A model generated the notes under the pieces. It did not search any database. It was not told the origin of the DNA and worked only from the letters and a program-made list of their open reading frames with translations. 64,000 bases of DNA from a virus (Duplodnaviria; Caudoviricetes). Position numbers and translations under genes: made by a program. The stretch lies in IMG/VR virus record IMGVR_UViG_3300037484_000435, positions 288,001 through 352,000 of that record; one strand, given 5' to 3'. Below, in pieces: positions 395 through 49,923 of this stretch (its first letter is position 1; every line of letters starts with the position of its first letter).

Positions 395-3300
395 TTAATC
401 TCCAAATTCACTATTAGGTGTGCGAGGTACTGCTGACGGAACTTGCTGCTGACCAGCAGACGATTTAGCCTGATTCGCTGCTTCTAATGCATCTTTGGCT
501 ATCCTCTCCGCGTCGGTAGCTTTCTGTACTGCAGTGTCTACACTAGTCTTCAAACCTGATGTGTCTTTTTCCTGTAGTTTTGCCTGATCTTCCAGTTTTG
601 CCAGGGTCTCTTGAGCCCTATCCACTATACTTTGTAGTTGCTTGGTTAATTCTGGGCTAGCAGCATTTTCAGCAGAAGCAGCAACTCCGGCTGCACCCTT
701 AACTGCATCTAGGGCCTCCTTAACTTTTTCTGTAACTGTGTTTTTAAATTCCTCTTGTGTTAGGAACCCACTTTCTTTAACTTGATTCGCTATAGCTCCA
801 ACTGACCCCTCTGCCAAGACTGCTGTAACTTGAGCACCTGGGGCCAACTCAACTTTGATACCTTGGAGTTTCTCAGCGACCGCACTACCAATGTTACCAC
901 CAGCAGCATTTAAGGCTTCCACTAAGGAATTTATAGCGGTTTCTAAAGTCGAACCCTTCTCCGTACTTTGATTCTCCAACTGCCTAAAATTACCTTCAGA
1001 CGGCGTGGCATACGGTGAAGTAGCAGGGGGTACCGCTGGAACTTCCGTACCTGCTGGTTTAGTTTCAGGTACTGTTGGATTTACTGGTGGAGTAACTTCT
1101 TTTGCTTTCTCCTCTTGTTTTGAATTTTCTAGAGCGGTCTTCACATCTTGTACCGCTTTTAAGATACCTTCCTCAACTGTTTTTGTCTCTAAAGCTTTCT
1201 GGATGGCCCCAAGTTTCTCTTCCAATGGACCTAGGGAGGCTCCCATTTTATCTGTATTAAAAACCCCTTCTTTTGTGGGTGTTGTGGGATTTACCCATGC
1301 TTGACTAGGTTCCATTCGTAGTGGAGTCATTGCAGATGTCACCCCATCGCCTGCTCTGTAGGGGGAGGAATACTTACTGGGGTCAGTCGACACAACAACT
1401 TGAGACTGTGTAGATGCTGTACTAGGTTGAAAACCCCTATAGTCGTAACCTTTATTACTCTGTGCTGTATCTGGGTTTATCCCCGTGCTAAGCATTCTGT
1501 CTCTCTCTTCGTTTAACGAAGCTCTAGTACGCATAGCGGCGGCGTCACCTGCATTGGCTCCTACTTCATCAATACTACCAGCACGATTAACTCTACCCAT
1601 CATTTGAGCGTCAACAATATGTGTTCCCCTACCCCCTAACATTTCAGGCCAGTTAGTAACAAATACTTGAGTAATCCCCTCGGCAGCCTTTGCAGCTGAA
1701 ATACCGCCTGCCTGTCCAGTTTTAGGTCCTCCGTAAACTGGTCCCACACCAACCTTATCCGGAATAGAGTCTGAAGCAGCTTTATAGTAGCGAGGATCCA
1801 CAATACCCTTTTCTTGATCAGCATAATAGTTAGGAACTTCCCCGCCCGCGTCTCTAATCTTTTGTTTTTGTTTCTCATAATAGGACCATGCTTCTGGTTC
1901 TAATTGTACACCTGCGGCTATATGTCTTTGAGTTCTATACGCAAGCATCTGGTCTCTTGTCCACGCACCACCAGTAGCAGGTTTTCCTTGATCGGCTAAA
2001 CCACCAGTACCAGTAGCAGGACCCTCAGCAGGAAATAATCCTCCCTGTGGCATTACCATACCACCAGATAGACCAGCATTCATAAAATCACCTTGGTTAG
2101 GAAACGCTCTAGTAAGATCACCAAAATTCTTGGGCATAGGTAAAATATTTGGCTGTGTGGCGGCATCTACACGAGCCTGTTCTTCCCCAGGAGTTCTTAA
2201 AATAGAAGGTTTTTCGTTTGGTACTTGAATACCAGCAAGTCGCATATTGGCAGCTTGAACACTAGTACCCATAGTTCCTGGCATAATAGCAGGGCCTTTA
2301 AGCCGAACCTTTAGAGCTAATTGTTCTTCGGGAGTATTAGCCCCCTGCTTCATATAAGCTTGTTCTTCCCAAAGTTCCATATGCTCTGGTTTAATCTGGG
2401 ATTCTCTTTTATTAAACAAATTGCCCATATCCGCACCAGTCCAACCCTCAGGAACATTTCCTGTGCGTAACGTATCCTCTTGCTCTGGCGTTAACCCAGT
2501 AAGTCTAGACTCCCAATCTCGACCCGTCCCTGTGCGTGCTCCAGTAAAAGTACTTTTCATATAAGCAGGCATACCGCCCGTAATAATTTCTTTTTCGGAA
2601 ACTTGCTGATACTCTGTTAATTGTTTTCTTGCGGCTTCCTGCTTTTCATCAAACTCTTTTCCGCCCTTTCCAAAAAGACCCTTTATGCCTGTCCATCCTA
2701 TTTGCCCACCAGAAGATTTTGTAGCCATATCATACGCTTCTTGTCCGTGTTTCTCAACAAATCCAGCTTTTATTATTTCATCCATTTGGCTACGAGCCCC
2801 ACTATAAGTATGGCCCCTTTTGCCACCAGTAATAAATTCTTCAGCCTTTCCTATACCCCCCCAAATAGTTGGAGAGATCAATCCTTTGGCTCCCCCTAAG
2901 GCATACTCTGGAAGGAATTTGCTGACCACATTTTCTCCCATTTCTAGAGTTCCTCCTAGGGCCCCCATAATCGTTTCGGCTCCTTTCAACATGGTGTTAG
3001 GCACAACCCCCAAGGGCTCTACATACGGAGCAATTGCTTCTACAGCACCACCAAGTTTTCCTTCTTTTCCTAACCCCAAACCCTCTTTAACTTGCCCCCC
3101 TACTTCTCCCCAATACTTGGAGGCCATCTGTAAAGTAGGATCCAAGGCTAAGCCTTTTACACCTTCGTTTGCAAAATTCATGGCTATCTCACTAGCTAAG
3201 ACACCACCACCAAACCTCAATGGAACTTTAAGAGCACTCAATCCTTTTAGATTATTGAGCCCAGGAAGAGTTTCCGATACCATTGTTTGTCCCAGCCCAA

Positions 3301-6300: not shown

Positions 6301-9300
6301 CTTCCTTTACAGTGTCAGGTGTAGTAGGTTCTTTAGGAGCAACGCCCGCAAACTCGTCATACATTGCTTTAATTGCTATGTCAACTCCCCCTGTTTTATA
6401 GGCCTCCCCAGCACCTTTAGCCTCAAAGTATCTTTGGTTCCACTCAACTCGCTCTGGAGATTTCGCCCGCTCAGAAGCAGCTTGTTCTTTCTGTGTCCGT
6501 CCTTTATCTAATCCTTTATCTCTTCTCCATTTTATAAATACATCTTCATGTTCTTTTCCCCACGCCTTTTTATGTTTACGTTTCCATTCTTTCTCCTCAT
6601 CGGTTTCCACCCCTTGGCTAATATCCTCGTAAGCCTGATTGACTGCTTGAAAACGCTTGACAGCCTCATCCGGAAGAACCCCTTGAGCAACAAGTTTATC
6701 TGGGTGTGTTTGCTTAACTTGTCTCCTATAAGCCTTCTTGATCTCCTCTGGAGATGCATTTCGTTCTATCCCAAGTATCTCGTGCGGTGTTTGGCCCCCT
6801 ACTGCCCCATCCCACGAAGCACTTTCACTAAAACCACGACCACCCACATCTCTTACTTCTCTTTCCATATCCCTTAAACGTAGCATTGTTGGTGTGACAA
6901 CTTGTTCAGGAAAACTTTGCTTCATTTCTCTCTGGGCCCTACGTTCTGCACGTAGCTTTGCTCGGTCCTCTTTTCTAGGAGCAACTAATTCTGGGTATCT
7001 AGCACGGGTCTGTTCGGTAGATTTTCTAATAGCCTCAGCGAAATTAGGCGCATAACTTTCCATTCTATCAGCCATACTTTCCATCATACCCACAGTTTGT
7101 GGTTTTATATCTGTTCCCACACGTGTTATCTTATTTAAACCTTCGTCCCCAACAGTTTCTCTAAATTGCTTGAACAAACGCATACCCGCCGTCATCTTTT
7201 GTTCTGGCGATAAAGTAGGAGAGACAGTAAAACCTCTGAAAACACCGCCCCGCTCGCCCAACTTGTAGGACAAACTTGCCGCTTTCTCATGTTGAGGTGT
7301 AAACAAATCAAGTACATCGTAGCCACCCTCACGGCCCTTTGACGATATTTCCTTGTGATACCAGTCTGGGGCGGGCCTTCTCTGCACAGGTGTTTCGACC
7401 CCACCAAACATACCCTTTAGAGAACCAAGTAAACTAGCACTCTCGCTAAAGTTATCCTTATTAATTACAGGTGCGGACTCCCTCTTACGATTAAGTAACA
7501 TATAAGGATAGGCGTAACGTGCTTGGTTTAATGCTGGTGGTGTAAATCCCTTTTGGTCTTCTTCATCCTTTAAAACCTTTGGCTGTCCTTCTAAAACAGA
7601 CTCGAAAGCCGCTTGAACTGCCCCAGTTCTTTGTTGTGGTTGAGCAGTAGTTAGGGTGGGGACTTGTAAAGTTTCCTCGCCCACCGATTGAATCATACGT
7701 TCCTTTGCAGTTTGAATAAGTCTTCTATCTTTCTCTATAAGCTGCGGACTTTTAAGAATTCGATCAAGAATGGCGGCTCCCCCGCGAACCATATTCTGCA
7801 TACCTGGGTCGGTTATCTTTTCTCCAAATGCGACTTTAGATTGAATATACCTTATTATCATCTCTTCAATCTTATCTTGATATTCTTGTTTCTTATCCTT
7901 ATTTGAATAACTCCCCCCAGGACCAAATTCGGGAAGACTGGTATAAGCCTGCACTTCTTTTAATATACGCGAGTTGGGCGCAAAGTGTAAACGTTTATAA
8001 ATATCTTCTGTTGTTTCTCCCAAAGGTTTCTTATCTACTTGTGCGTTACGTAAAACTTTTGCCACAGGGTGCAGGCCCGCTTCATGCGCAACACTCAACC
8101 ACGTAGGAACGTCATACCCAGATTCACGCATTTGCCCGTTTTCTAAATCAAAACGGCTTCCTTTTCTAGATCCAGTAGAAACCATGGCTGCAGAACCCAC
8201 ACCACCATAAGTGCCTTTCTGTGCTGATATGCCACGAGTTGTTAAATAACCAGTTGCTGTTGGGACTTTCCCAATATCAGGATCGTCTGTGAATGAGAGC
8301 AATCCTCCCTCAGTATTATATACTCGGTCAGCCTTAAACCCTTTAGGGGCAAGATATTCCCAAGCTTCTCTATTCAACGAGGGCTTAATTGTGTTAGCAA
8401 TATTCATGGCCTGCTGCCCAAGATCTGCCAATGGGGGTTCCGTTATTTTAGTAGGTTGTCCACTCGGAGCCGTGGTAGGTGCTGGTAAAACAAAAGGAAT
8501 AATATTAGGAGATCCAGTGGGAATTGTTGCTGTTACTGGGGTCTCTGATATAATATTACGAGCGGGCTTAACTGGAGGACCCACTACTGTAGAAGTAGCA
8601 GCGTAGACTTGTCCTGCTTGATAACTCCCTGTGGATTCGATAGCAGATTGAGCAGTGCCTCTTGATACTTCTGGTGGTGTAGACGGCACCGCAGAAGAAC
8701 CTCCACCACGTTCATCCTTACTGGTTCCCGTTCCCTTATCCCCACACAAACACTTTTGTATAGTAAGTAATGTTTCGGATATTTTATTCAAAAGTTTGGA
8801 TTTATCTAGGCTCTCCTTCATAGCTAAATCCATAACCCTGACCATTTCTCTACCTTGAGCCGACTTAATGCCTGCATCATCGGCCTTGCTCATAAGGTCC
8901 CTCATTTCTCCGCCTTCAGGCCCTAACCCTTTTAAATAAATCTGTTCTTGTTTTAGGTCCATCGCTGGTTGATAATTAACAACACGCCACATCTCTCTGC
9001 CCTGCGACGATCTAACCCCGTGCTCTGAGGCCATCTTCATATTTTCAGCTTCGTTTAAAGCAGACATTTCTGCTACAGGATTTCCTTCTGCGCGTTTTCT
9101 TATCCCAGATAACCACTCGGCTTCTTCTGCCCCAGCCATCGGTTTCAATTGCCCAAACATACTCCCGCCCAGTATGCCAGGCGTTGTTTCAGAACCATAA
9201 ACATTCTTCAAAATCCAAGGGTCTACACCAGCACCGCCACGGGCGGTAGACGCTAAACCTTGCTGCAAAGATTGCTCTTTCCACTTCTCTACGTATTTTT

Positions 9301-12300
9301 GATAAACTGTATCTGATGTTGTATCAGTTACACTAACATTCCTGCCCACATTTATATCTGTCCAATCTTTCCTTTCATTAATGGATTTTAACTGGGCTTC
9401 TTCTTGTTTTTTTCTTACTTCTTCTGTTGTGAAATTATTAGTTGTTGTTGTCGAGGTTGACGAAGTAGCCCCGTAAGTGGTCTGGCCCAATACACCTGCC
9501 TGTAATTGTGCCAACATATCTTTGGCGTAACCTGTAGGATCCATTACTTGTTTAAAAGCGGCCTTTTGGTCTTCAGTTAGGTCTTTTGTACTTCCAGTAA
9601 GAGCTTCTTGAAGATTTCTGATCGCATCTACAATAGGAACCCAAGTGAATCTTGCAGTTTGTGCTGAATCCTCCACTTTTATAGCCTGCTTGAGGATATT
9701 GGACATTTGTTTAAACTCTGAGAGGGACTCAAACCCACGACGTGTAGCAACCCCACCTCTGTTATCAACTATATCCGCAGCCTTCTCCATATCTTCCTTA
9801 AGTTTAGATTTCATAGGTGCAAACGTCTTTACGAGATCAGGAAACTGACCCCCATACATAACTTCAGTTTCTTCTATCGTCTTTTCTGCTTCTTGTGCAA
9901 CCCCTTTTTGTCGTTCAAATTTTTGATCTTCGCGTTTTTGTAAGTAATTAATCTGCTCTTCTTTTGCAGTCCACGTTATACGTTCTTTTTGTGCTCGATA
10001 CTCCCCAGGTTTAATTTCACCAGACCGATTCTTCGCGTCTAAGGCAGCCAACTCCTGTGCTTCCTTGCTTCCTTGACGAAAAGCCACCGGTACTTTTTCC
10101 GGGTATTCCCTGTCGAATTCTTCATAGTCTGAGCTTTGGGTACGGTAATCTGCCCCCATACCCGGCATAATTACATTCTTCCCACCTATAGTTTCCATCC
10201 TAGCCCGCTGAACTGAAGATGGGTGTTTACCCATCTCTGTGTCCATACGAACCGTGTCTAGACCCCAGCGAGTGCGTGCCATAACTTCTAGTTGCACTGC
10301 GAGTTGCTCAAATTTCTGGGCAACTTGTGCTACCTTTCCTAACATATTAATTTTCTCAATAAGGGGTTCGAGTGCTTTACGGGCCTCCTCAGCAGACCCC
10401 TTGAATACAGTAGACGCCTTTCCAAAAATTTCTGCTTGCGCCAGATACTTTTCTTGTTCCTTGCCTGTTGTGATACCGCCCATAAGTCTGGCTTCAACTT
10501 CTTTCTGCTGAAAAGCCCCAGCTTTCTCAGCTAACGTATTCACCGTAGCGGTGCCCATATGTGCCTCAGCTGCTAGATTAGGAGCATACTTTGTGACAAC
10601 CTCCCTCGGGGTTAATTCGTGTTCAGCCTTAGTCTCTTGCCATTGATACTCAGCAACGCCCTTAGCTGCTCCCGCCACAGGGGACTTTAGTTCTCGGGAA
10701 AGCATGTCTCCAGAGATTCTAGCTAGGTCTCCCATCGTCTGCTTTAACAGTTGCATCGATTCTTGTAATGCTTCCATCTTGGCCAAAGTAACAGCAAATT
10801 GCTGGGCTAAACCCTCAAGGGCTTTCATCTGCCCCTTGTATGCCTCGGTAAGTCCTTCATGTTTTTGCTGTAAAAAGGCTAGTTGGCGATCTAATTCTGC
10901 TACTGACTCCTGATCGCCCGAAGCCGCAGCCATAGTCCTCTTTGCTTGTGTTGCTTGAACTTCCCCCGCCGACCTGCCAAGTTGCTCTTTCCATTGTCTT
11001 TCCAATTCTTGGGCCTGCATCCCTGTTTCATACATCTTCGGAGCATGCTTCGCCATGAGTTGGCTAGGGCTCATCTCATAGGAGTACCATTGTGGGCGTT
11101 GGGTCTCCCCCATATACCCAGACTGAGTAAAAAGACTCGCGTTACGACTATCACTAATTTTTTGTCCGAGAGTTCCCACAGCAGTCGTAATATCCACGAT
11201 CATCTTTTTAGTTTCCATAACTATCTTGATTTCCCACAACTTCTGGGATGCTTTCTTGAGAGTTTCATCTAGGGTAGACACTTCTTGGGTCAATGCTTCA
11301 ATCTTAGCTTCAGCAGCTTTCATCCCTTTTTCATATTGATCCGCACGGTTCTTATCCCCACCAGGTTGTTTCTCCTGTGCATATAATGAAGCCATTTTCT
11401 GTAATTCAGATTTTGTAGCATCTATTTCACTAATAACCTGATTACGTCGCATTTGGGCTTCCTGAGCTTGTTTAGCTTCAGGACCACCAAACTTGGCAAA
11501 ATATTCTTGTGGATTGAGATCAAATTGAGTTCTTGGTCCTTCTTGAATCTGTGTGGGCATCGCTATCCCGGCCATAATACTACCAGGAGCCTGCTTTAGT
11601 GCAGATATATTAAATTCATGGGGAAGGGCTACTTCGAATTTAGCACGCATCCCTACCAACATATTATTCAGCTGCTTAACAAAACCTTCGGCTAAAAGTT
11701 TTACAACCTTACTCTCTTCCGCCTTGAGTTCCCTGATTAGCTTATCTAGCTCCTCTTTTGTTTTAGTTGGAAGGTCTTCCTTGGCTAATTTCTCCTCAAG
11801 ATCTTTCAACATTTCTGCAGTTCTCTCCAGATTATTCTTTATCCCCTGTAGATTAATGGAGCGACCCGCTTCTAGGTCACGTTTAGTTTGCTTTAGTTGG
11901 TCTAACTCAGTATTCCACTTACTTTCGTTAGATGATGCCGCCGAATAGTTACTTTCTGCACTATTCAACTCATCAAATCTCTGCTTAGCCTCGTCTACCT
12001 TCTTTTTAAAACTAACTGCCTCAGGAGTACCAAAGTTACCCTTGTATTTTTCACTGTACTCCCCAGATAGCTTAGACCACTCTTCACCTAGATTTCTATC
12101 TTTATATTTCGCCTTAACTTTTTCAAGTTCCTTAGCTGCTTTTTCTCTTTCAGGAACCGCAGATTTAAGAGCCTGCTCTGCCGCAGGGATACTCGTTTCA
12201 ATAGTTGTTTTTAACTTTTCTCGTTGGCTAGTAGTAAGCTCCGCTTCTTTAGGTAACTTGTTTACCCGACTCTGCTCGTTTGCGACAGCTTCTCTCGCTA

Positions 12301-30300: not shown

Positions 30301-33300
30301 ATCCAGACAGTTGTTCAGTAATCATATTTGACACATTTTCATCTACACCAGCAATGGATTTGTAAGCACTATAGGGAGATTTCATAAGGGTCCAAGGCAA
30401 GCGTAATCCGAAAGATGTTGCCCCATACCCCAATTGTGCGCCGCCTTTCGCAACACTTCCTAAGGCGTGTGTAAAACTTGGGGGAACTTCATTTCCCCTA
30501 GAAAATAACTTTTCTAACCCAGTGTCCTTCAAAATACTTTCAACAATATTCTGTGGTATACCGTCCTTACCCATCGTTCCTCTCGCCAGTGCACCTAAAT
30601 TCTGCCGTAATGCGAAAGCAAGACCCCTAACAGTTGATGGGTGCATACCAACATAATCAACTGGCCGATCAATAGATTTGGTTGGTTCAATCCTCATCCC
30701 GTAAGGGTCCTTATTCTCAAGAAGTGATTCTTTAGTATCAAACCTTCCCAAGGTTATGGGTTCTGGCATATTTATTGTGTAAGGGCCAACTTTAGCTTCC
30801 CCCTCTAAACTTAGTAATGCATTGCCGTGGGTTTTCTTTCTCAACAATCCCACCAAATGTGGGTCAATACCCTCTAGCATTCTCTGTGGGGCACCTAAAA
30901 ACCTCTTCTCTCTTACCCCAGGATGAGATAAGACTTCTAGTGCTTTACTTACTTCAGATGGATCAAACCCTAAAGCAGCGGAGACTAGCCCTGGGGTTCC
31001 AAGAGATACCTCAAATTTACGCGACTTGTCTTCTGCTTCCCACTCAAATGTTTTCTTCTTGAGAGATTTGGTCCCCTCGAACAAAGGCGAGTAGGCCTTC
31101 ATAGCCAAATCCTGCTGTAATCTTCCTTGCAAAGCCTGAATTTCTTGAGTGTTACTTTTCGACATCTTCATTTCTGGGTGTCCAGCAAGGATTTCTTGCA
31201 TGGCTTCCCAACGTGCGGCGGGGGATTTACTAAAAGGCTTCCCAACCTCCCCTGCCCTCTTCTGGGCCTGTTCAAACTGTCTTTGATAAACATCCTTAGA
31301 TGTACTAGACATTGCCTCAGAGATAAATTTATCTACAAGAGGACTCGATACAGCCCTAGTCTTCCACATTCCCTTGACAGATTCTGGGGCTTCATTAATA
31401 TCTAAGTGCGTTTTTTCATGTGCGTATGTTTGTTGGATTGACCTTCCAATACCTTCTTTTTCAGTTCCTTTAGCGGACATATAAGCCTTAATAATTTCTG
31501 GTGGCATGTATATCTTACCGCCCCCACCAAGACCCACAGCAAAACCTTGTTTTAAGTAATTAAGGTTACGGTCTTGTGACATACCACGCTGTCTAAAAGG
31601 TTCCGCTGATACCGTCAAGTTCCCACCCTTTAGGAGGTTAGCAACCGTGTCAGTTCCCTTGGCAGGAGCAAAAGACGGTAAACCTTCGAGAGAATTCTCC
31701 TCGGGCGTTCTAACAGACATTTGTTGAATTTTTGCAGCTGCTGCAGAAATACCCAAAGAAGCTGGAATACGCAACACCATTCTACTTACTTCCCCACTTT
31801 GGTCTGAAAACCATAAACCTAATTGAGAAATTTTATCTATAATAGCAGAGTAGTGTTTACCTAGATCTACACTAGGTACATTTTCAGATACGGCGTCATA
31901 TGTTCTGTATAAGCCCGACACGACATCATCATACATCTTACCAACACCACCATAGAAGTTACTCGCAAAATCCTCAACTTGTGGTCGTTTAGAGAGTATA
32001 CCAGGAACAGTATCCATAGCAGTTCCCCAGACCTTTTTAGTAACATCCGTTGCATAAGGAAAAGCGGACTCATCCCATTTTCTAAAGGTAGGTCGTGCAT
32101 AACCTTCAAAATCTTTCATACCAGACCAAGCTGCTGAACCAGCGGCATTTACACCACGCTTAGCCAAATTCGTAACACTATCAGGAATATATTCAGAAAT
32201 TTTCCCCACTAAGTCTTTTGTAGCTGACCAACCTTCACCTAAAAGAGCTGTACCCGACTTAACTATTTCTGAAGATCCTATAGTCTTTATAGCTCCCACA
32301 AGAGCTTCAACAATAGGAGCAATCATTGGGTAACCAGTATAAGCTGTAGCCCCAGCCATGGTTCCTGCGCCCAAACCACCAAGGCCCAGCATTGTCATCG
32401 AAGCAGGTAACGCATATGTTGCTGCAAGAGCTGCTCCGCCACCAATCAGGGCCGCTTTACCTAGCCCACCAGCCATGCGTCTCCATAAAGGCTTCTTTTC
32501 ATCAGCAGGAGCATTTAAACGAGGTTCATCGAGGTTTTCCTCTCCTTCTGCGGGCGTATTGCTACGGTAAGTTTTTTCAGATGGAGTAAATAATCCCCCT
32601 ATCCCACCAGTTACCGCACCCCATAGCGGGGCCGCTTTTATAACACTGGAACGAGAATCTAGAAAACTTTGTGGTAATAGATTGCTACCTTCAAGCAAAC
32701 TTGACGCACCATACCACCCAGCACCAGCAATTGAAGACACAGCAGCACCAGAAAGAGCACCTTTTAACATTTTCCATATAGGTCTTTCTTCATTAGTAGG
32801 ATTCAACTGTGGAGTTCTTGACACCCCCGCTGATGTTAATCCAGAAAGGGCCCCAACCGCTGCTCCCGCCCCCGTAGCTAAAGGTATGTGTTGGAGACCT
32901 AGTCCATAAGCCATACTTCCCACTATAGGGGCAACAGCTGCCCCTATCAAAGCCGATCTCCCTGCACTTTCTAAAAACCCAGTAGGTTCCTGACGTAAAG
33001 GAGCGTAAGCTTGGGTACCAGGTGTTAATCCTCTATTCATAGCAATGTTTGCTAGTCTATCGGCGGGCTTGTTTTCCTCACGAGGAACATAAGAGAAAGA
33101 CACATTGTCAAATTGTGCTGCTAGCACATCCGCCTGAGCCTTAAGTTCTTTTATCTGCTCATTCTTCACCTTGAACTCATTTCTCATCTGTCCTACCATA
33201 ACTTCAGAGTCTGATCTTACTTTTATGTTTTGAGCGGAATTCTTAAGAGCCTCCTGTAAACCCATAATGAGGCCTTGGTACTCAGCAGCCATAGAAGTCA

Positions 33301-36300
33301 TTTCCCCAAGATATTTATTGACTTCTGCAATAGTCTGTCCCTTAGGATTTAATAGGACAGCACCAGCACCAGAAGGTCCCGGATTACCACGGGACCCAGC
33401 ATCAGTATATAGTGTATAAGGTTGTTGTGCAGGGGAATAATTCTGTAGATTTTTTCGCATAAAGGAAAGTTCTTCTTGTGGGGATGTCCCGATGGCCTCT
33501 CTTCCGGCTTTTTCTGCTACTAGCTCTTGTACCTTTGCGAGTTCATCCAAAACTTCTTGATCCTCATCAGTACGGAGACCTCCAGCTAGAGCCTCTTCTA
33601 GGGCATTTGCTGGCTCTTCCTCCCCCCTATCTCCGTATTTTTGCATATAATAATTCTGTATTTTCTTTGTATCTATACCAGGAAACTCTTTTCCAGACAT
33701 GATATCCTGCGCGATAGTAGGAGCGGAATAATCTATTACAGCATGCCCTTTTTCATGTTGCATTACGTTCATAAAAGCACGCATCTCTGCTCTATTTGTA
33801 GGGGAGAATAAACGGATATTCCCATCTTGGTAACGGCCTTCCCCTGCACCAAGCGTATCGTCTATCTCAACGTTAGGACTAAAACCATAAAACTGTTTAG
33901 CCCTTTCAGGATCCCTTTCCTCCATTGGCCTTACTTTGGAAACTAGCCACTGTCCTTTTTTAGTATCTTCGCCCTTCGGCTCGTAATTAAGAATATTGTA
34001 AGTACCATCAACCAAACCTTTAACGCCTTCCAACCTTACTGTGACATACCCTTCTTTTACACTTTCCAAAGTAGCCTTTCCTGTATCATAAGTTGCCATA
34101 TGACCAGCTCCATAAAAACCTTTGGGAATATCATATTCTCCTTTCTGGTAATAATCTATTGCGTGGTGTGCTGTAGGACCAATTGCTAATCTAGGCTTTC
34201 CTTTTTCAGTAGGCATAAACTCTGGTACCGCCCATGACTGAAGCTGACCACCAACCTCAATTCTCATATCATGGTGTGGCCCTGCCCTAAAGGCATCGTG
34301 TTTATGAACTACAAATCGGCCCACATCCCCTTCTTTGGCTTCCCCAGGAAACATAAATCCTGCCTCTTTAGAAATAGGCACTGCCTCTGGGTACTTAGGA
34401 GCTTGTCTCCTTGTATTTAGAACTAGAACTGGATCGTAAGGTAACTCAGGCATTCCTTTACCAAATATGCCTTTGCGTAATTCCTCTTGTGTAGCTACAA
34501 CTGCATCTTTGGCAAATGAAGGTATTGGCTCTACACTGGGAGCCTGGAGTAGGAACTTAGTTCCTTTCTTAAATTCTCCTGCCCGCTCAGGGGGCTGATA
34601 GAATTTATCATCTAAACCTTTAAGGTATTCCTCCATACGCTTCTTAGAGGTTTCTACAACGGGCCAATCCTCTGGATAGAGACCTTCCTGCTTTTGGACA
34701 AGAGATGGCGAAAAATTCTTGTAAGAGTCCTGATCTATCTCTTCTTCAGTTTGATATGCGGGAGAATATGATCGCTTTCCTTCTAACACCCTCGCAAAGC
34801 GTTCTTCTATTCTCTGTTCCGCGGATTCTTGTGTTCTCCAAGGATAACGGTTTTCCTCATTAACCAGATAATCTTTGGTTTTGAGTTTAAGCATTCTTGG
34901 GAAACCTGTTTTTGGATCAATTTCACCCAAGGCTTTAGCAACTACACCCTCCTCTATGCCCTTAAATTGATCTTGTTGAGTATACACCTTTTGTGCTAGG
35001 TCTTTATCAACCTTACCACGATAAAGTTCATCTACAGTCTTCAACTTCAAGTCATCTGCTAGTTTTTTGAACTCGTCTACAGGGAGAGGTTTATTAGCAA
35101 CCTTGGCATCAAACCAAGCTAACTGGTCTTTCTTTCCTCCCCATTCACCAAACAAATCTACTCGATGTCCTATATCTTTTGAGTATTTCTTAAGTTCAGG
35201 AGCCAGCCCTTCTTCCATCTGTTCAATAAAAGGTTTGTATAGTTTATTAGCAGTATCGGGGTCTAATACTTTATTGCGTGTAGCATAGCCTATCTCGGTA
35301 TTTCCCCAACGTAGAGGAACAGCACTCATTTTGATTTGATGACCATGACTCTTATACTGTGCCGATCCCTCAACGTCTTGTTCTAAGAATTTTGGGTCTT
35401 CAAAACCTGTTTTAATATGGGGGTAATCGGCTGGACTAAACCCACGAACAGCACGCCTGATGTTTTCAGGTGCTTTTTCTCCAAAAGCTTCTCCAGGTGT
35501 AAATGGGGGTCCACCAAAAGGCCCTCCAGGAGATGGCATAGTAGTGGATAATCCACCCCTAACGGACTTCTCTTCTATTGCTTTAAGAAACTCATTTCTA
35601 GATTTCTGGAATCTCATTGTATAAAAGTCTGGTGGTTCTATATCCAGTTCCTTCAGAATATTCTCCATTCTCTTCTTGAATACCATATTAATATAGCGAG
35701 TGTAGCCACGATTCTCACCATATATTCCTTCAGCATAAAGGGCTTCCAGAGGCTTTTCAGATTCGCTAGTTATCTTCTTAGCCTTCTGATCAAAATGAAA
35801 TATACTCTGCCAATCTTGTGATGTTAAATCAAAGGCACTATTAAAAATCTTTTCAACATCATTTCTTACTTTATGTGTGGGTTTAGATAGAATCTCTTCA
35901 AGGTCAACACCCCCACCAGCACTTGGCCTAAAAGGCCACATGGACTGCTCAGCGGAACGTGGTATTGCGGTATTCACACGAGATTCAACTTGGCTTAGCC
36001 GTAGATCTTCCCAGTCCTTTGGTAATCCTGCTCCTATGTGTTCAAGAATCTGCCCCTGGCGTTCCTTTATCACATTATTTATAAAATGTGTAACTCCTCG
36101 GCTTCCTCCGTAAACGCCCTCATTGCGCAAGGAAGAAATGACATCCTGATATGGTGTATCCTCGGAAGGAGACTTCATCCCACGAAGAACTGGGTGTGCT
36201 TTGTACACGCTCTGCCAATCTTCTTGGCTCAGCGTTTCGGTATTTTCCTTTACCGCTTCCTTCCAACTTTCTTTAAATAACGGGGAGAATGATGCAACAA

Positions 36301-39300
36301 GGTCCTGAGTTTTACCCCTTCCTACAAGTCCCTCAGATATTTGTGCAGGAAGGTTGACACCAGTTAAACCAAAAAAGCCTGAGCGGGAAGCTCTCCTAAG
36401 TGGGCCAATACCAGAACCATAACCAGCTTCCCCCGCAATATAAGAAGCTGAGGCCTCTTCGACTGCTTGTTTTCTAAACGCCGGAATTTTACGCAAGGCT
36501 ACGGTAACCTCTATATTGCTCGAATCTTCCATAGAACCCAAACCCGCCCCTTCTAAGGCTTTCTTAACCATAGGGCCGTGCTCTCTGCTATATACTAGTT
36601 TTTCAATTAAACTATCTACTTCTTTTGCATGGCTTGACTTGGGATCAGAAACCCTGTCAATCACAGATCTTAAGTAATCAGCTTTAACTCCTTCCCCCAT
36701 ATCTATGTACTTCAGAGCAGTTCCTCTTCTGATAATCTCGTGGGCTCGATCCATAGCCTGTGTTAACTTGTCGTTGGCCGTAGACCTCTCATCTGGGTTA
36801 CGAGCAAGCATACGTTCACGGAGTGCATCTTCAAAGGCAGTTTTTATTCCACTATCAATATAAACTTGGCCAGTTTCTTTGTCATAAGAAAATTTTCGTC
36901 CCGCTTTAGATTGTTCTCCATAAATTCCTTCGGTCTGCTTCGAAAAAGTTTGCACCTGATTAAGTAAACCCTCCACCTGATACACTTCTTTATTCATTAT
37001 TTTCATCATCTGGTCATGTGCCACAACAAACTCTTCATAAGCTTTCATTGCGGGACTTTCAAAGGTGTATTTCTTCTGTTCAGTGGCCCCACCAAAAGTC
37101 CCTATCATTTCTGGAATTTCTATCCCTTTACCCTTTTTATTTCTTAATACATAGTCAAGCACTTCAGCTTGGGATAACGCAGGACCCCCAGGAGTGTATT
37201 CATTTTCTATATCTGATCGTTTAGCATAGGACCCTACGGCCATCGCGGCCCCACCGGAAGTTTTCATCTTATACATAGGTTGCAAACCCCTATATAAAGT
37301 AGAAGTACTTATTCCAGGTTGTATAATTTCCTCACTAATATTCCTATAATCCCCCTTCCTCACTTTCTCGATACCTTCTCCCATAGCAGCAATCCTAAAA
37401 CCTATTTCTTCTTTAGATAATTTCTTACCTGATGCTTTTCGCATCTCGTCTATTACCAGCTGTGTAATATCATCTTTTCCTACTAAAGCTTGGAAATCAC
37501 CTTCGTTAAATTTGAACTTGGTTTTGAACCCTAAAGTTTGGAGTGTTTCATCCTCATAACCTGGCTTCCCTGCAACGAATCTAGCAAGACCAAGAGATCC
37601 TTTTTTAGATAAGGTGGCGTCCCCCGCCAAACCTGTTGCGTAAAGTTCCTTTACATTAGCAACGGACATACGCATCATTTGGTCAAAAACATTTTCAAAC
37701 ATAGCACGGAAAGATGTTTTCTGTATAATATCTTCTATTAATTGCTCCCGATCTTTGCCCTTTGTGGATATACCGTATTCTTTAGATTCGCTCTGTAATT
37801 GTTCTAAAGTGAGAGGACGTAAAAACTTTAGTCTGTATTTACGCATTGATTCTTCTTGTTGTCCAAAAAGAGCTTCCTCACCAGCGCCTTGCATACCACC
37901 TTTATATTCTCCCCAGCCACCGTGACCGGCATCAAGAGCCGATGTTAGCTGATCCAAATTACCAGTGAAAAAAGCTTGTTGAACTTTGGGGCTTAAATCA
38001 GAACCAGCGGAACCATGCTTACCACCAATAACTCTCTGGATAGTATCCCTCAAGAATTCCCCTAAAAGAAGATTGTAGTTCTCATGCAACTTGGGGGTCA
38101 ACCCCAACCCCTTCGGGTCTGCCCCTCGATACAATAAACCTATACGGTTAAAGGCTTCATATCCTTGTCCCATATCAACTTTATGCACGAAATGTTTAAG
38201 GGAGTCTTCCGCAATTGTTGAGGGGTCTGTTTCATGTATATCTAGAAGATTTTTCTTGGCGGCTTTAGTAATCTCATCAACGTAGTTCATGCTCTTCCAG
38301 CCGGGAGACGACGCCGACAACCTATACTTCAAACTAGCAGGTAATTCCTCTGGAGATAGTTCAGCGCCCTTAACTCCCAACGAGACCGCAGATTCAGGAA
38401 CATTGCTCTTTTGAATATTTTCGTGCATAAACCTACGAGTTGTACCATAATCTTTTAGTTGCATCTCATGGATACGTTTGAGTTCTTCGTTAGCTTTCTG
38501 AGTAGTAGCGGCATGAATAGAAATCATATCACCATCAAAATCTAGCGTCATACTGGCTTCATGGTAAAGCGGTAATAAATCTTTTGAAACTTTATCGATT
38601 TTATCAATATCGTCTTGTAACTTACCGACCTTAGAGGTGAATTTACCTCCGCTAGTTTCAAGTTCATTTTCAATCTCTTTGACTTTCTTTTCCCTTAGTT
38701 CTTCCAAAGCGTCCCGAGTTTTATTCATTGTACTGATAACTGGGTAATCCCCGATAGGTAAACCAGGAACAGCAACAGACCCAGACAAATCTTTCATCAT
38801 ATCATCCACCGTTAATTTTAGAGAACGGTAACTAAATTCATCTGTAGTAGGTTGTCTATTAATAAGAGCATAAACATCATCAACCTTACTTTGTAAATCA
38901 GGGGTCGCCATACCTGCTTTTTGTAACTCCACCAAATCTTTTCTACCAATACGTACTTCCCCTTTACCGATCCATTGTGAGGGGTGTTCTTTTTTGAATT
39001 CTCCCACATTCTTGAGAGATTCAGACATTTGACCTATTAATTCCTCGGAGCCAGGTATTTCTTCTTTGAACTCTTCCAAACGCCCAATACCAGACCTAAT
39101 AGCCTCACTAGGGTCATAAGGCCTATGCTGTGCCGTCAAGTATAAGGCTGGTATCTTCTTCTTCATAATGGTATTTGAAATTAACCCACCTCTACCGTAA
39201 ACTGTGCCGGACAATTCTTCATAGTAAGCCTGCAAGTTTCTCATTATTTCGCCATATTGTAAATCCAGAGCAGTTTTTGATGTGAGACCAACATTTTGAC

Positions 39301-42300
39301 CCCTAGCATCAAGTTTTGGTTCATATAATCTGAAATCCTTCACAATCTTACTCAATAACTCTGGGCTAACCAATTCCTTTACAGCATAATTTGGATTACG
39401 CCCCTCAGATATATCTTCGGACACTGTTTTCCCTATCATATTTGTATCTTGGGTATAGATTACTGAACCAGAAAGGAGGTCCCTCAAAAGACGTGCTCTA
39501 AAGTTTAAATTAGACACATTATCTTCGAGCTGGGAGAAGTATTTTGTATAAGCTTCACTTACTGTTATGCCCTTCTTAAAATCTTCTTCCAAGGATTTAG
39601 CGTGCTCTTCTGGCAAGCGAGAATATAAAGTTGGAAACCATGTTTTTTCTGGATTTTGAGGATCAGCGATCAAAGAAGACTTTGCGGAAAATTGTGGCAT
39701 CGGCATGTTCCCAACTAACCCTAGAGCCTGTTCCTCTAATTTTCCTAGAAGTTCTTTTTTAAATGGTATATCACGAACAGGATGAATTCTATTATAGAAA
39801 TCCCCTAACATAGTATCTACAAAAGTTTTTTGTATTTCTTCCACTTGTGGGGTCTTAGCTGGTTTTTGTAAAAGAGAGTGTTTCCTTACAGACTCGATTA
39901 ATTCAGATAGGTAACGGGCATCCGGAGAAGGTAAGATTTCTCCAGTTTCTGAAGTTACATATTGCCTTGCTTTAATTTCTGGAATTTCAATTAATTTTTT
40001 AATTGGCACCACCTGCTTTCCCTCTTTAATTCCAGCCGCTACCTCTTCCTCACGAGCCTTGCTTACTTCTTCGGAAGGTTCTGGCAAACGAAGCACCATA
40101 GATGGCCCATACTTGAAGGCGTCAAAAATGGTTCGAGATAAATCTGCTACTGTAGCTTTTCGTTTTAGTGGCGCTATATACTTGTTGGAGCCTTCATCTA
40201 CCAAGTCTTCTGGAGTAATAACTGTTTTAGACCTATCGCGTTCTAACTCTTGGCTTCGTAATTTAGAGAATGACCTGAAAGCATTTAGGTAAGCCCCAGC
40301 TTCTCTGGCATCAGGAAAGGCCCTCATTGTAAATTCATGCTCTAACGCCCCGCCTTTGGGAAATAATTTTTTGAGACCAAACCAACCATGGGGATCAACA
40401 GTCATTTTAGATTCACCAGACTCTAATTCCTCTTCTCCTTTGGATAACCAAGTTTTTGGCTCTTTCATTATCATGACATGCATAGCCCCAGCTATTGCTT
40501 TCTCTAATTTACCTTCCTTATCCAGAATAAACTCTTCCCCGTATTTTCCTTTAAGCCCTAAAATATCTTTATATAACTCGGCTAACTTACGGGCCTCAAC
40601 CCCAGAAGCTGTATTACCTACTGCCACTTTTGCTAATGGGTCCCTTTTAATTTGGTCAATTAAAGTCTCATCAGGAAGAGCAACAGATCGTAGGTTACCA
40701 ATAATATTATTCGCAATCATTTCTGCTAAATTTCCACCAATCATGCGAGATTTTTTTCCTATTCCAGAAGCAGATACTTGCAAATCTACAGGAACATCTC
40801 TGGTCAAATCTCCACCAACAACTTCCTGATATGCTTTACGTACTTTACCCATATCAGCAGAAATAGTCTTCACCTGATCCGTAGCAGTCTTCGCACCCTT
40901 TAACACACTCGTCGGAGCTAGTCCTAATCCCAGCACTTTCGATACAAATTCACGCCTCTCGTCTACACTCGGGGCATCCTCTCCTGTGAGCTTGCCTGTC
41001 CCGTATTCGATCGGTGTAATCTTCAAATCCTTTAAATGCTCAGAAGACATCATAATAAGATTTCTTGTACCTTTTATCATTTCTAAGGCTTTCTTTGCTT
41101 CAGCGGGATCCACATCCTTCCTAGCCTTAATCATTTCAGATAAAAGTTCTTCAAATGTTTTTGGGACCTCTCTCAGCATACCAATATCAGAAAACTCTAA
41201 TCTTGGGGCCATGCCTTTCTTAGCCTTTTCCACAAGAGAAGATTCAGCTTCAGGACCCATTCTTCTGGCCACTGTTACAGCGACCCCCTTCATAACCTGT
41301 CCCGTTGATATCTTTCGTGTCTCATGGCCAAGGTAAGCATTGAGAAGCTCTACAATGTTTTCTTCCACTGGGCCTTTGGGTGATTGAGACCACCGTTTTA
41401 CTATATCTTTTACGAATGTCTGGTCCGCAAGCTCTTTGGATTGTATGGGTGCTCCAAAAATATCGTGCCCCACTTCCTCTAGATACTTTATTATACTCCC
41501 CTTTAACGCCTCTGGGGTAGATTTAAGTGATGGCACAACCATCTTCTTAAATTTAAAGGTGGCTAATTCCTGTAACCTCTTACCTATTTGGTATAAATCC
41601 TCGTACCCTGCAGAGACATCCTTTAACACAGTTGTTACATTCAAACCTGTTCCATAAGGCCCCCATTCTCCGCCCTTAATAAAGCCATGAGCTTTACGAG
41701 AACGAATAGCATTAAACTCTGGACCAGCTAGAGAATCCCAAGCAGCCCCAGTAGGACGAGCCGGATTAATAGAATAGCCAAAGGCCTCAGTTTCTCTGGG
41801 ATCGTAAGAAGCGAATGGTTGTAAACGTTTACTACGAAACATAGACTCCATGAAATGATCACCAAAATCTCTCTTGCCCGCTGCCGACGCTTCATTAAGA
41901 CCCACAGTTGCTAACTTCTCAATAGTGGGGCCCAACCTCCGTTGAGAAGCTTCGGTTTGCCGTAGAAATTCTTTCTGGACTAACTCTTCCATATCTAGAT
42001 TTCGTGTAACAATAAAACGTCGTAATGCTTGCAAATCAACAGGTACTCCGTAAGAACTTGGTCCCGCGTCTATACCAGGAATTTTTGGTTGAATAGTAGT
42101 AACTTTGGCCCTACCATACACTTCATGTTTTTGCATCGCCTCATGCTCTTCCGGAACCTTCTCTTTAATTGGGTCAAACACTTTCTTAAACCTTTGTGGC
42201 AGTAGCTCTTGAAAATATGATTCATTTCCTAGACGGCCAGCAGACGAAAGACTATTCCTAAGTTTCTGCAGTTCATTACTGTCAGTCTTAGAGTAAGTTG

Positions 42301-44530: not shown

Positions 44531-44552
44531 TATTTAAATTAACCTCATGAAC

Positions 44553-45647
44553 TTATTCTTTGGTGAATTTTTTACTCTTTGAAATACCCTTAGACTTTTT
44601 AAAAGTAACGCCGTCTTGTCCTGGGTCATCTTTCAAAGAGATATCGGCAACATTCCCAGCTTTAGGATTTGCCCGATCATACTGCCTATCCAAGTATTCT
44701 GGATGCGACTGCATAATTAATCTGGTGCTCATCTTCTCCGCCGTAGAGCTACCATATTTTTTCTCGGCCCGCCTTTCTGACCTGTCTTTCGATCTTTCCT
44801 TATGCAAGTCTTCCATATACTCGTCTAGTGCTCCATCATCTTGGATGACCCAGTCATCTGGCTGGTCCTCTGGAAGCATTTCATAAATAGATTGATAATA
44901 CCCTGTCCACCATAATAAGTTCTTTTGGTCAGGTGTCAATTCTATAGACGATTTTGGAAATAAATGAAGATTACCTTTCTGTGCGACTAAATAGTCCAAC
45001 CGCCACAAATTACTTCGGGCGATATACCTGATTTCTTCTGTCGTATGTCCAACTAAATATCTTAGAAACTCAGACAGAAGTTTGTTTTTGAGCTCAACTT
45101 TCCTTTCTACCTCCTTGCAATAGGTTAGGTAATTGTCCCATAATAACTCATCCGTTTCGGGGTCAAAACAGCAAGCCCATAACATGTAGTCATATTTGGC
45201 TTGTCGTGCTCTCCGTTCAGCAGTATTTGACATCATTATCTCGCGTTTCTTCTCGGCTTGAAATAATTCTTCCTCTAACTTATTTATACTCTCCTGAATG
45301 TAAGGCTTATAAGTAACATCAATATCTACGTCTGACATTTTTCTTTTATTCATGTCAAGTAATTTATGAATAGTTTCAACTTTTTTATCATCCTTTTCAG
45401 TCCAAATTCCGCGCTCACGCATTAGTTTGTCCATTTCAGATTCATTCATAATGTTGTCTTTTTTGGCACGGAACATAACACGGCGTTCCTCTAAATTCGC
45501 AAGGAGGGTGGTGTGACGGGAAGGATAACGGAAAATAACAAAAATAGGGAAATCCTCAGAGAAAAGAGAAACCTCAACAAGTCTTTGAGAAAAACATATC
45601 TGTTCTATTGTTAGTTGTAACTCGTCAAGAGTCCAATCAATAGACAT
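44553..45647 (-). CDS. Putative tail assembly chaperone, long paralog (G-T-like), directly upstream of the TMP
   Basis: Position immediately before the TMP. The N-terminal 2/3 is similar to 47859-48566 (MSNTAERRARQAKYDY...D.ETDELLWDNYLTY). It has an extra C-terminal domain (RYIARSNLWR...YYQSIYEM...PDDWVIQDDGALD). ATG at 45647 is preferred over the GTG at 45659. Confidence 0.65.
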   Translation of the reverse strand: MSIDWTLDELQLTIEQICFSQRLVEVSLFSEDFPIFVIFRYPSRHTTLLANLEERRVMFRAKKDNIMNESEMDKLMRERGIWTEKDDKKVETIHKLLDMNKRKMSDVDIDVTYKPYIQESINKLEEELFQAEKKREIMMSNTAERRARQAKYDYMLWACCFDPETDELLWDNYLTYCKEVERKVELKNKLLSEFLRYLVGHTTEEIRYIARSNLWRLDYLVAQKGNLHLFPKSSIELTPDQKNLLWWTGYYQSIYEMLPEDQPDDWVIQDDGALDEYMEDLHKERSKDRSERRAEKKYGSSTAEKMSTRLIMQSHPEYLDRQYDRANPKAGNVADISLKDDPGQDGVTFKKSKGISKSKKFTKE

Positions 45648-46542
45648 GCAAATCACCATACTTTATAATTCTATAACTACTCAATAGATCCCATTTTCTT
45701 GATAACCCAAACTGAACACTATTTCGACAGTCAATTAAAAATTTCTCGGCACGATTACCCCCTAGAGTATAATAACTATAAGTCCCAAAGTCTTTTACCT
45801 GACTAATCCGAGGAGCACCATAAGTGGAATCACAAAAATTCTTAATCCAAGCCAACAGATATCTGGTTCCACAAAAGCCTGTTACTAACGTGGGTATATT
45901 GTGTTTTTTATTCCAACCAAGGGAGACCCACCCATCACCATCAAGAAGTCCTTTAAGATAGGGCAGTATCAAATCATTATCTAATAACTTAGGGGGACGA
46001 AGTGTATAGGTCTTTTGCGGAGTAATAGAAAAATTGTTATTTAAATCTATATACCACCCCTTAATCCCAGAAATACGTATTTCAGCAAAATAGGAATTTT
46101 TACTAAAACCCCTACTTTTTCGAGAATGTATTTCCCCAGAAAAATGAGTCTCTGCTTTAAAAGATCCCAAAACAGAAGCATCCTTCTCAGCCAAACCTAT
46201 AGTTAATTGGTATCTATTTGCAGATAAGTTACCATCGGCAGCAATAAAGCCTGCCCAGTAAGAGTTGTGTGTATTCGGTTCGGAAAAGTAATCCAAATCA
46301 ACGGTTGTTCTGACTCGTCCTAAAGACAAGGTGTGGGAGGTATCACCTTTTATACCCAACCTCAGAAGTCTATTACTAACCGCACCTTTGCTCTTACCAA
46401 GTTGTTGTGAAATTTCTTTACGATTAACCTTTTCATAAAGAGATAATAGTAGCCTATCTTCTTCGGGAGTCCAATGTTTATACCCCTTAGTATTCTGAGG
46501 ATTGCGTGATTGGAGTTCATCTAAGGACCATTCTACTGCCAT
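45637..46542 (-). mobile_element. Free-standing LAGLIDADG homing endonuclease with one Myb/HTH-like N-terminal repeat
   Basis: SYWAGFIAADG and YLKGLLDGDG motifs; HWTPEEDRLLL repeat; C-terminal LSRKW. Confidence 0.88.
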
Positions 46543-49820: not shown

Positions 49821-49923
49821 CTGCCCTCTCCTTGTATGATCCCCATCTACCCTTCCTTTAAAAGGTGGGATGATACTGGAGACCAACATAGATCCCCAGT
49901 ATCAGTTAAATTACAACCTTTAA

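Follow-up and report, generated by a model that had tools for sequence, protein, structure and literature searches.

A 14,711-residue tape-measure protein of a huge sediment phage with a predicted RNA polymerase module, RNA-repair enzymes and a J-domain

Introduction

Why should the tape-measure locus of a phage hold one stop-free reading frame of 44.1 kb, and what could a protein of this size do for the phage? The question is raised by a 64,000-nucleotide stretch of DNA (hereafter the window), bases 288001-352000 of the single 545,322-bp contig of an uncultured sediment phage (IMG/VR virus record IMGVR_UViG_3300037484_000435), in which a single open reading frame (ORF) occupies positions 395..44530 of the minus strand and encodes 14,711 amino acids (aa). 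A preliminary description of the sequence had read this gene as a phage tape-measure protein (TMP) that is also an RNA polymerase (RNAP) and a set of enzymes, so that tail ruler, early transcription machine and anti-defence or repair enzymes would be packaged and delivered together. We followed up this reading with profile, structure and homology searches, and we consider it rather probable that the sole TMP of this 545-kb phage has expanded into a 14,711-residue delivery vehicle with an RNAP, an RNA-repair cassette and a J-domain. Our confidence is high for the ORF, the TMP identity and the beta-prime-like polymerase module, and moderate for a complete, active and ejected polymerase with the roles proposed below. 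As far as sequence and predicted structure reach, the core of the preliminary description is supported, by the real ORF, its recurrence in relatives, its place as the sole TMP, the clamp and barrel of the polymerase and the intact enzyme motifs, while several of its domain calls found no profile support. Coordinates below are those of the window unless stated otherwise, and all features of the giant gene lie on the minus strand.

Results

One real 44-kb gene at the tape-measure locus

Our own translation agreed with the ORF listing that the frame starts with GTG and is free of stops under translation table 11 over 14,711 codons, and a Shine-Dalgarno sequence (GAGG) was seen approximately 12 nucleotides (nt) upstream of the start, directly after the stop codon of the preceding gene. 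It is impossible for a 44-kb open frame to arise by chance. Two close relatives of the protein were found. The first (G001) lies on IMGVR_UViG_3300005077_000489, a 211-kb IMG/VR phage contig from a different sample, where a 13,617-codon open frame contains the tape-measure family PF10145 and encodes a 13,616-aa protein that is collinear with the window protein, with 63% identity over aa 1-3844, 38% over aa 4280-6656 and 24-35% from there to aa ~12020. The second (P0001) is a Logan-derived relative whose 21-kb contig ends at 6,667 aa of its protein, and it is also collinear with the window protein, with 54% identity over aa 1-3070 and continuing through the enzyme modules to the contig end. The window protein and both relatives have the N-terminus MAE(D/E)YTFNIK in common.

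One public run, a sediment metagenome, yielded contigs that were 100% identical to the window and tiled 28 of the 30 bins of positions 25000-44900, with no joints, loose ends or differences. Being short (0.7-2 kb, approximately 5x depth) and probably derived from the source sample, these Logan contigs lend the assembly weak support. Internal repeats were considered as a source of the great length and rejected, since none that could inflate the ORF was detected. The ORF is real and not a misassembly, because a collinear 13,616-aa ORF stands in a contig from another sample and a third relative is collinear to its contig end. The single 44.1-kb frame of the preliminary description thus stands, and the chimerism that it had named as a possible source of error is not supported.

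The only tape-measure core of the genome

The tape-measure core (25682..27805, aa 5576-6283) contains PF10145 (PhageMin_Tail) at nt 26837-27430, aa 5701-5898, with an E-value of 3e-26 and 92.9 bits against a cut-off of 33.2, and 12 PHROG TMP families also match aa ~5576-6283 (best E 4.7e-64). This copy of PF10145 is the only one in the genome. A TP901-type TMP core had been proposed near aa 5650, and this is where we found it. The core is homologous to those of three more distant proteins, P0010, P0014 and P0015, with E-values down to 1.7e-74. Hydrophobic hairpins, which had also been predicted, follow the core at aa 6083-6125 and a type 1 RNase H (described below) at aa 3861-3879.

A tape-measure protein fused to polymerase-like sequence recurs in distant phages

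An exhaustive search of 1.84 billion representatives returned only 8 matches. A further search seeded with one distant match, P0007, defined a second family (family B; P0007 and P0010-P0015), which is collinear with the window protein at approximately 20% identity. P0010, P0014 and P0015 have a DFDGD region, the metal-binding motif of two-barrel RNAPs, and a PF10145 core in one protein, so, judged from these sequences, the TMP-RNAP fusion recurs beyond the close relatives. On the contig of P0010 (L012; JGI sample 3300009702, 55 kb) the corresponding region is divided among consecutive genes: a beta-like region in a separate 1,840-aa gene directly upstream (3455-8977 of that contig), a 311-aa gene (9059-9994), a 2,522-aa gene with the DFDGD barrel and the TMP core (10001-17569) and, overlapping it, a gene of >1,711 aa (17548-22680). 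The split may be a genuine subunit arrangement, or may come from frameshifting or sequencing errors. Two other members, P0012 and P0013, were deposited as partial proteins of a Bacteroidetes metagenome-assembled genome (MAG) and a 'Candidatus Thorarchaeota' MAG; the two hardly differ around DFDGD and are therefore probably encoded by phage contigs binned into cellular genomes. P0013 also has an RNase_T exonuclease domain (PF00929).

The beta-prime-like half of the polymerase module

The predicted beta-prime-like half consists of a clamp region (39158..40267, aa 1422-1791) and a catalytic double-psi beta-barrel (38441..38878, aa 1885-2030), which is split by a coiled-coil insert of ~60 aa and bears the metal-binding DFDGD (nt 38528-38542, aa 1997-2001). 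The DFDGD segment aligned to residues 454-482 of Escherichia coli RpoC with z = 9.4. Between the window family and family B the invariant residues are R1892-x-P1894-x-T1896...S1900, P1922 and P1925, and further L1996, D1997, D1999, G2000, D2001 and H2006 around the DFDGD/DYDGD triad, and at the level of the alignments this pattern is that of the beta-prime catalytic barrel. The only Pfam match at E <= 10 was a sub-threshold one to PF00623, over 25 residues at DFDGD (E 0.008). The segment NRQPT was not significant alone when compared with E. coli RpoC and RpoB (z 1.3), and tblastn of the polymerase against 50,697 phage records gave no match.

Two AlphaFold2 models were made, the first of aa 1250-2449 (mean predicted local distance difference test score, pLDDT, 56) and the second of aa 921-2120 (59). 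Both were confident over aa ~1410-1850, and confidence was low at the DFDGD loop itself. With an exhaustive aligner, this confident stretch matched the N-terminal clamp in largest subunits of plastid, phage AR9, archaeal and Mycobacterium RNAP and of Pol I and Pol II, and with the second model the matches reached through the catalytic barrel. A second look at the PDB showed that 49 of the 50 top rows were RNAP largest subunits, aligned from residue ~15-25 to residue ~480-495. The clamp alone gave a root-mean-square deviation of 2.7-3.2 Å over ~125 residues, and the barrel gave 3.2-3.6 Å over 102-112 residues of the Pol IV/V barrel with 19-21% identity. The top AFDB cluster match was 'DNA-directed RNA polymerase' (E 1.4e-3, probability 0.94), and the top ESM Atlas row was a viral cluster with Rpb1_1/Rpb1_2 (Rpb1 domains 1 and 2). 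All RNAP structural matches came from the exhaustive and second-look aligners, the AFDB clusters and the ESM Atlas; Foldseek gave no match at E <= 0.001 for the first model against the PDB or for the second model against BFVD. The top-Z rows of the wide search were generic helix bundles on the coiled-coil insert (residues 554-743 of the first model and 875-1087 of the second), and they were set aside as uninformative.

We regard the beta-prime-like half as well supported by the predicted structures and by the invariant DxDGD. The preliminary description had named both a beta-like and a beta-prime-like part: the second is borne out by the DFDGD at aa 1997 and by structure matches to RNAP largest subunits from clamp through barrel, and the first was found at motif level only.

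The candidate beta-like half

The candidate beta-like half (40331..41722, aa 937-1400) has the elements K1073-x7-K1081-G-V and P1247-V-D...S-R1262-M...E1270, which stand in the order of RpoB. Its aa 937-1280 are homologous to family B, both to P0007 (E 2e-14) and to the separate 1,840-aa upstream gene of L012 (E 2.6e-9), and P1247, G1256, K1259, R1262 and E1270 are invariant across the two families. The family B segment GRKxxTR(Y/F)GxKGV aligned locally to the E. coli RpoB segment GDKMAGRHGNKGV, with z of only 2.0-2.5. The window's own segment was not significant against RpoB, and the region was of low confidence in the AlphaFold2 models. PF00562 did not match, and neither PVD..SRM (z 0.9) nor the beta C-terminal motif (z -0.3) was significant alone against E. 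coli RpoC and RpoB. Family B keeps GRKxxTRYGxKGV, whereas in the lineage of the window protein TGQVMKGV stands as the decayed form of the canonical beta motif R(Y/H)G. From these motifs, a beta-like half of the polymerase is probable but unproven.

An inserted RNA-repair cassette between polymerase and tape-measure core

The window protein has ~3,600 residues between DFDGD and the TMP core, in comparison with ~1,450-1,650 in family B, which means that the ligase, phosphoesterase and RNase H found there form a lineage-specific insertion. All three enzymes were above the Pfam gathering scores where the preliminary description had placed them (aa ~3060, ~3400 and ~3710). The Rnl2-type ATP-dependent RNA ligase (nucleotidyltransferase) lies at 34883..35353, aa 3060-3216 (PF09414, E 7.9e-10, 39.6 bits against a cut-off of 27), and its motifs KSHG (I), FGEWGG (III), EGVVAK (IV) and KLKTK (V) are kept in all three relatives (the window protein, G001 and P0001). 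The LigD-type 3'-phosphoesterase follows at 34019..34306, aa 3409-3504 (PF13298, E 6.4e-16, 58.9 bits against a cut-off of 31.1); its site HxHD...PHxDxRI is likewise kept in all three, and its PDB relatives 3n9b, 2lj6, 3p43 and 3p4h are LigD domains of Pseudomonas and archaea. The type 1 RNase H at 33044..33421, aa 3704-3829, matched PF13456 (RVT_3; E 2.3e-25, 89.3 bits), PF00075 (E 1e-10, 42.4 bits) and phrog_531, has 3hst (the Rv2228c N-domain, E 2e-26) and also archaeal-type RNase HI as relatives in the PDB, and keeps its D-E-D-D carboxylates in all three proteins.

Two candidate metallopeptidase sites, HEKGH (33743..33757, aa 3592-3596) and HEKTH (31406..31420, aa 4371-4375), are kept in the three relatives. 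In a language-model search both HExxH segments were nearest to clusters with the polyvalent-protein domains LPD23, LPD1 and LPD5 (score 0.92), which we treat as a lead only; the segments had no Pfam match at E <= 1, and PF18838 and PF18818 (LPD23 and MPTase-PolyVal) did not match at E <= 10. The zincins proposed at aa ~3592 and ~4371 are thus present as conserved motifs, and profiles lend no support to a zincin fold. A third zincin-like site at aa ~12149 was rejected, for its sequence HEAGLH is HExxxH and not HExxH, no profile supports it and its language-model score was only 0.81. The HeH and GNAT-like calls also lacked profile support, with no Pfam match at E <= 1; by eye, the relatives conserve the HeH-like motif (aa 2236-2270).

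Upstream of the ligase a ~120-aa domain is duplicated in tandem (35501..36259, aa ~2758-3010, with copies at aa 2768 and 2904; pairwise z = 19.6), which agrees with the repeat noticed earlier, and this domain has no Pfam match. P0001 has ~800 extra residues (aa ~3071-3877, and also 4556-4921), which contain a nucleotidyltransferase of the PolyA_pol/CCA type (PF01743), a match to PF26128 and two further HExxH motifs, so the cargo cassette is modular between close relatives.

Chain ends, post-core region and J-domain

The N-terminal region (41741..44530, aa 1-930) is charged, helix-prone and ~63% identical to G001, and it has no Pfam, PHROG or PDB match. The long post-core region (6788..25681, aa 6284-12581) is helix-prone with Gly/Ala-rich hydrophobic stretches and is presumed to be the ruler or a channel part. 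It is 24-38% identical to G001, collinear to aa ~12020, has transmembrane-like segments at aa 8152-8237 and 10036-10054, and matched no family.

A DnaJ J-domain follows at 6617..6787, aa 12582-12638 (PF00226, E 1.6e-13, 51 bits against a cut-off of 27.8), with an intact HPD at aa 12609, exactly as had been proposed. Neither the J-domain nor its HPD was found in G001, and P0001 ends before the corresponding region.

The variable C-terminal region (398..6616, aa 12639-14711) has a transmembrane-like segment at aa 13137-13155 and VFVTNWPE at aa 14289. The last ~1,300 residues of G001 are unrelated to the last ~2,700 of the window protein: BLAST gave no match between the two C-termini at E <= 1e-5, and the region has no Pfam match. 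The sole common element of the C-termini is V-F-V-T-N-W-P-E/G (E 0.001 in a search relaxed to E <= 1), with one copy of the NWP motif in the window protein (1646-1666, aa 14289-14295) and three in G001 (aa 13102, 13185 and 13381).

Genome and neighbouring genes

The 545,322-bp genome is 100% complete by CheckV and has a GC content of 41.9%. Genome positions 216-380 kb form one continuous minus-strand block of structural genes, in which the giant gene is flanked upstream by the major head protein (window 61938-63041) and downstream by tail-protein domains on the same strand. The tail sheath families PF04984 and PF17482 were not found in the genome, which is suggestive, not proof, of a non-contractile tail. 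There are 40 tRNA genes, including a CTA-anticodon (amber-reading) suppressor at 47126-47202 of the genome contig, which ARAGORN labels tRNA-Pyl. The giant ORF has no TAG, so recoding is unnecessary for reading it.

Downstream, the minus strand holds further very large ORFs, at 261888-277052 (5,054 aa), 228713-238924 (3,403 aa), 241609-249228 (2,539 aa) and 222243-228728 (2,161 aa) in genome coordinates, and the 5,054-aa neighbour has two copies of the 'tail protein' domain phrog_17517. Homing-endonuclease genes (phrog_4645 with a D5-like N-terminal domain; HNH), at least nine and all free-standing, lie on both sides of the giant gene, at 45637-46542, 46606-47748, 56316-57134, 59561-60211 and 60359-61525 of the window and at 2819-3646, 3974-4900, 5266-6246 and 6985-7797 of the downstream stretch L010; the 44-kb ORF itself is interrupted by none. 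The interval between head gene and TMP also encodes a 524-aa protein of the phage 'kinase' family phrog_10912 (window 54326-55900, E 1.4e-29) and, at window 48888-49889, a protein of 333 aa that weakly matches the sulfotransferase family phrog_3347 (E 1.3e-8).

Discussion

Proposed mechanism

The C-terminus of a TMP lies at the tail tip, and the TMP is ejected ahead of the DNA. By analogy with this biology and with gp96 of the Thermus phage P23-45, we propose that the giant protein would work as a single chain, ordered from N to C as an N-terminal region, a two-barrel RNAP module, an RNA end-healing and sealing cassette flanked by the two HExxH sites, and the TMP core with its membrane hairpins, followed by ~6,000 helix-prone, hydrophobic residues of ruler or channel, the J-domain and the variable end. 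Built into the tail lumen, the chain would leave it C-terminal end first and enter the envelope and cytoplasm of the host before the DNA does, and its membrane hairpins (aa 3861-3879, 6083-6125, 8152-8237 and others) would form part of a channel. The polymerase, being N-proximal, would come out last, beside the entering genome, and could begin transcription there with the first phage genes. The three enzymes of the cassette would be in the cell from the start of infection and may reverse host attack on tRNA or mRNA. Healing and sealing of RNA cut by host nucleases is the most likely job of the cassette, which fits the 40 tRNA genes, and the alternative is processing of RNA-DNA junctions. The J-domain may recruit host DnaK to pull, ratchet or refold the ejected chain, and the HExxH sites may cut it into working modules.

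Weighing the evidence

Several points weigh against an ejected, transcribing TMP. Profile searches confirmed the TMP core of the preliminary description and did not recognise its RNAP, by Pfam, by phmmer and hmmsearch against the PDB or by hhalign against gp96, and the beta-like half rests on motifs at z <= 2.5. The failure of profiles is expected, since the same was reported for gp96 by its authors (PMC10770324). PDB phmmer and profile searches found no gp96 chain, comparison of the family profile with gp96 1-1200 by hhalign yielded a probability of 1.6%, and the solved gp96 structure was absent from the structural match lists, so homology to the sole proven example is not supported. A second, non-virion RNAP was not found in the genome (no PF00562, no further PF00623, no other large DxDGD ORF). 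The length is a further difficulty. At ~1.5 Å per residue the implied ruler is ~2.2 µm for the full chain and ~1.4 µm from core to C-terminus, and P74-26, with a tail of nearly 1 µm, has been described as having the longest known tail (PMC10034513). A tail of ~2.2 µm would be far beyond any known one, which means that part of the chain is probably not ruler; unless the tail is extraordinary, a large share of the chain would serve otherwise. Packaging in the virion, ejection and its order, polymerase and other enzyme activity, proteolytic processing and a role in tail length are proposed by analogy.

A giant TMP could be real and its polymerase-like module still not be an early transcriptase. 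It might be a structural remnant that is catalytically dead, or a two-barrel enzyme put to some other use, for example primer synthesis or RNA-templated synthesis of the QDE-1 type, and the cassette might then serve genome-end processing and not counter-defence. We consider this unlikely. The module is unrecognised by any sequence profile, its beta-like half is unproven with a canonical motif that has decayed in the window lineage, and RNase H, LigD-type phosphoesterase and ligase would also suit RNA-primed or ribonucleotide-terminated DNA ends. However, lineages at ~20% identity keep the three metal-binding Asp, the His that follows them and the R-x-P-x-T strand without any change, which argues for selection on catalysis. 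The clamp and barrel resemble DNA-dependent multisubunit enzymes, and the sole characterised TMP-fused example is an early-gene transcriptase (PMC10770324).

The nearness of both HExxH segments to LPD23/LPD1/LPD5 clusters (score 0.92), together with the published proposal that zincins cleave injected polyvalent proteins (PMC5512222), leads to another possibility, in which the giant is mostly a polyvalent cargo protein with a captured TMP core, cleaved before or during assembly, so that only the part from core to C-terminus or less enters the tail and the enzymes are in the head or unpackaged. Such an arrangement would agree with a cassette that is a lineage-specific insert, variable between close relatives (PolyA_pol in P0001), and would remove the implausible 2.2-µm tail. 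But the LPD23 and MPTase-PolyVal hidden Markov models (HMMs) do not match, the P23-45 polymerase stays attached to the TMP in virions (PMC10770324), and one 44-kb frame is kept in three lineages, which suggests that co-translation and co-assembly matter; we therefore hold this arrangement to be improbable. An artefact, by chimeric misassembly or by genes fused through sequencing errors, is close to refuted: the genome is metagenomic, the single public run found gives only short contigs at ~5x depth and the equivalent region of L012 is split (1,840, 311, 2,522 and >1,711 aa), but another sample's contig encodes the parts in unchanged order within a single 13,616-aa frame (24-63% identity), the third relative does likewise to its contig end, the run contigs are free of joints, loose ends and differences, and chance cannot produce such a frame.

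Significance

We therefore keep to the reading of an expanded TMP that may deliver a polymerase and RNA-repair enzymes. A virion RNAP fused to a TMP is already known from P23-45 gp96 (PMC10770324). What is new is the size, approximately three times that of the 'giant' P23-45 TMP, a clamp-bearing polymerase type without detectable kinship to gp96, the inserted RNA-repair cassette and the J-domain. A literature search found no report of a TMP above 10,000 aa or of an RNA ligase embedded in a TMP. As a tentative and at present doubtful extension, a clamp-bearing fused beta/beta-prime RNAP might have joined the TMP independently of the clamp-less P23-45 type and grown, in huge sediment phages, into the largest known viral protein, one tail-delivered chain with a transcription machine, an RNA end-repair kit (to which a relative adds a nucleotidyltransferase) and a J-domain through which DnaK is harnessed.

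If the independent fusion and the cargo chain were both true, delivery of folded-enzyme cargo through the tail lumen would be a general and modular strategy of large phages. Experiments have established the fusion of RNAP and ruler for a single small family of Thermus phages, and the window protein, its two close relatives and P0010, P0014 and P0015 suggest that it is widespread in uncultured phages. Delivery of a ready-made ligase, 3'-phosphoesterase and RNase H would be a new counter-defence route against host RNA-targeting nucleases, and the J-domain, on a protein predicted to be ejected, points to protein import by means of host Hsp70. The size also raises the questions of how folded enzymes are stored in or passed through a tail tube and of whether tail length still follows TMP length. 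Defined fragments are available for expression and assay.

Comparison with known systems

The nearest precedent in kind is gp96 of P23-45, an Oshimavirus (the system also occurs in P74-26, G20c and TSP4), a TMP of 5,002 aa. Chaban et al. (2024, PMC10770324) showed that its N-terminal ~1,100 aa form a two-barrel RNAP of the virion, with the metal motif 779-DFDGD-783, by which the pre-early genes are transcribed, and they propose that it works at the TMP pore as DNA enters. The premise of the preliminary description that virion RNAPs are known as separate proteins is thus out of date, and the concept of a TMP-RNAP fusion is not new. Both proteins are giant TMPs with an N-proximal RNAP, two-barrel in gp96 and predicted to be so in the window protein, an identical DFDGD, no detectable similarity to known RNAPs beyond the metal motif, and membrane segments and peptidase-type motifs further along the chain, and both genes stand after the head genes and before the distal-tail genes. 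The window protein differs in being three times longer, in a genome of 545 kb versus 84 kb. Its polymerase has a predicted beta-prime-type clamp, whereas gp96 is described as flat and clamp-less, and a coiled coil is inserted in its catalytic barrel. Neither the paper nor the GenBank record describes a ligase/phosphoesterase/RNase H cassette or a J-domain for gp96, which also has no HExxH motif, and the genomes differ in that no second, non-virion RNAP was found in ours. We therefore liken the window protein to gp96 in kind, as an analogy, while membership of the gp96 family is not demonstrable.

Other virion polymerases lie within very large proteins that are injected to start transcription, namely gp66 of the crAss-like phage phi14:2 and gp50 of N4 (as cited in PMC10770324). 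In contrast to the window protein they are not fused to a TMP core, and N4 gp50 is T7-like; no similarity of the window polymerase to either was detected. In comparison with the non-virion and virion RNAPs of AR9 and phiKZ and with cellular beta-prime, the window polymerase differs in being embedded, as one chain, in a structural protein, in lacking both similarity at the Pfam level and visible zinc-ribbon cysteines, and in the coiled coil that interrupts its barrel.

For the cargo, the nearest framework is the concept of polyvalent proteins of phages and conjugative elements, for which delivery with the DNA and cleavage into units by an embedded zincin-like peptidase are proposed (Iyer, Burroughs, Anand, de Souza and Aravind 2017, PMC5512222). 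They share with the window protein the form of a single very large multi-enzyme chain, and the window HExxH segments are nearest to LPD clusters. However, PMC5512222 mentions neither tape measures nor RNA ligase within such proteins, its MPTase-PolyVal and LPD23 HMMs do not match the window protein, and the polymerase listed there is of the N4 (T7-like, single-subunit) type and not two-barrel. The enzymes themselves are those of known RNA repair and processing: T4 Rnl2-type ligases, LigD 3'-phosphoesterase and Rv2228c/archaeal-type RNase HI, with families and catalytic motifs intact in the window protein, and the added CCA/poly(A)-type nucleotidyltransferase of P0001 fits the theme of RNA end repair. 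Unlike in RNA repair systems, these domains are linked in one chain inside a predicted virion structural protein, and they would thus be delivered pre-made and not expressed after infection.

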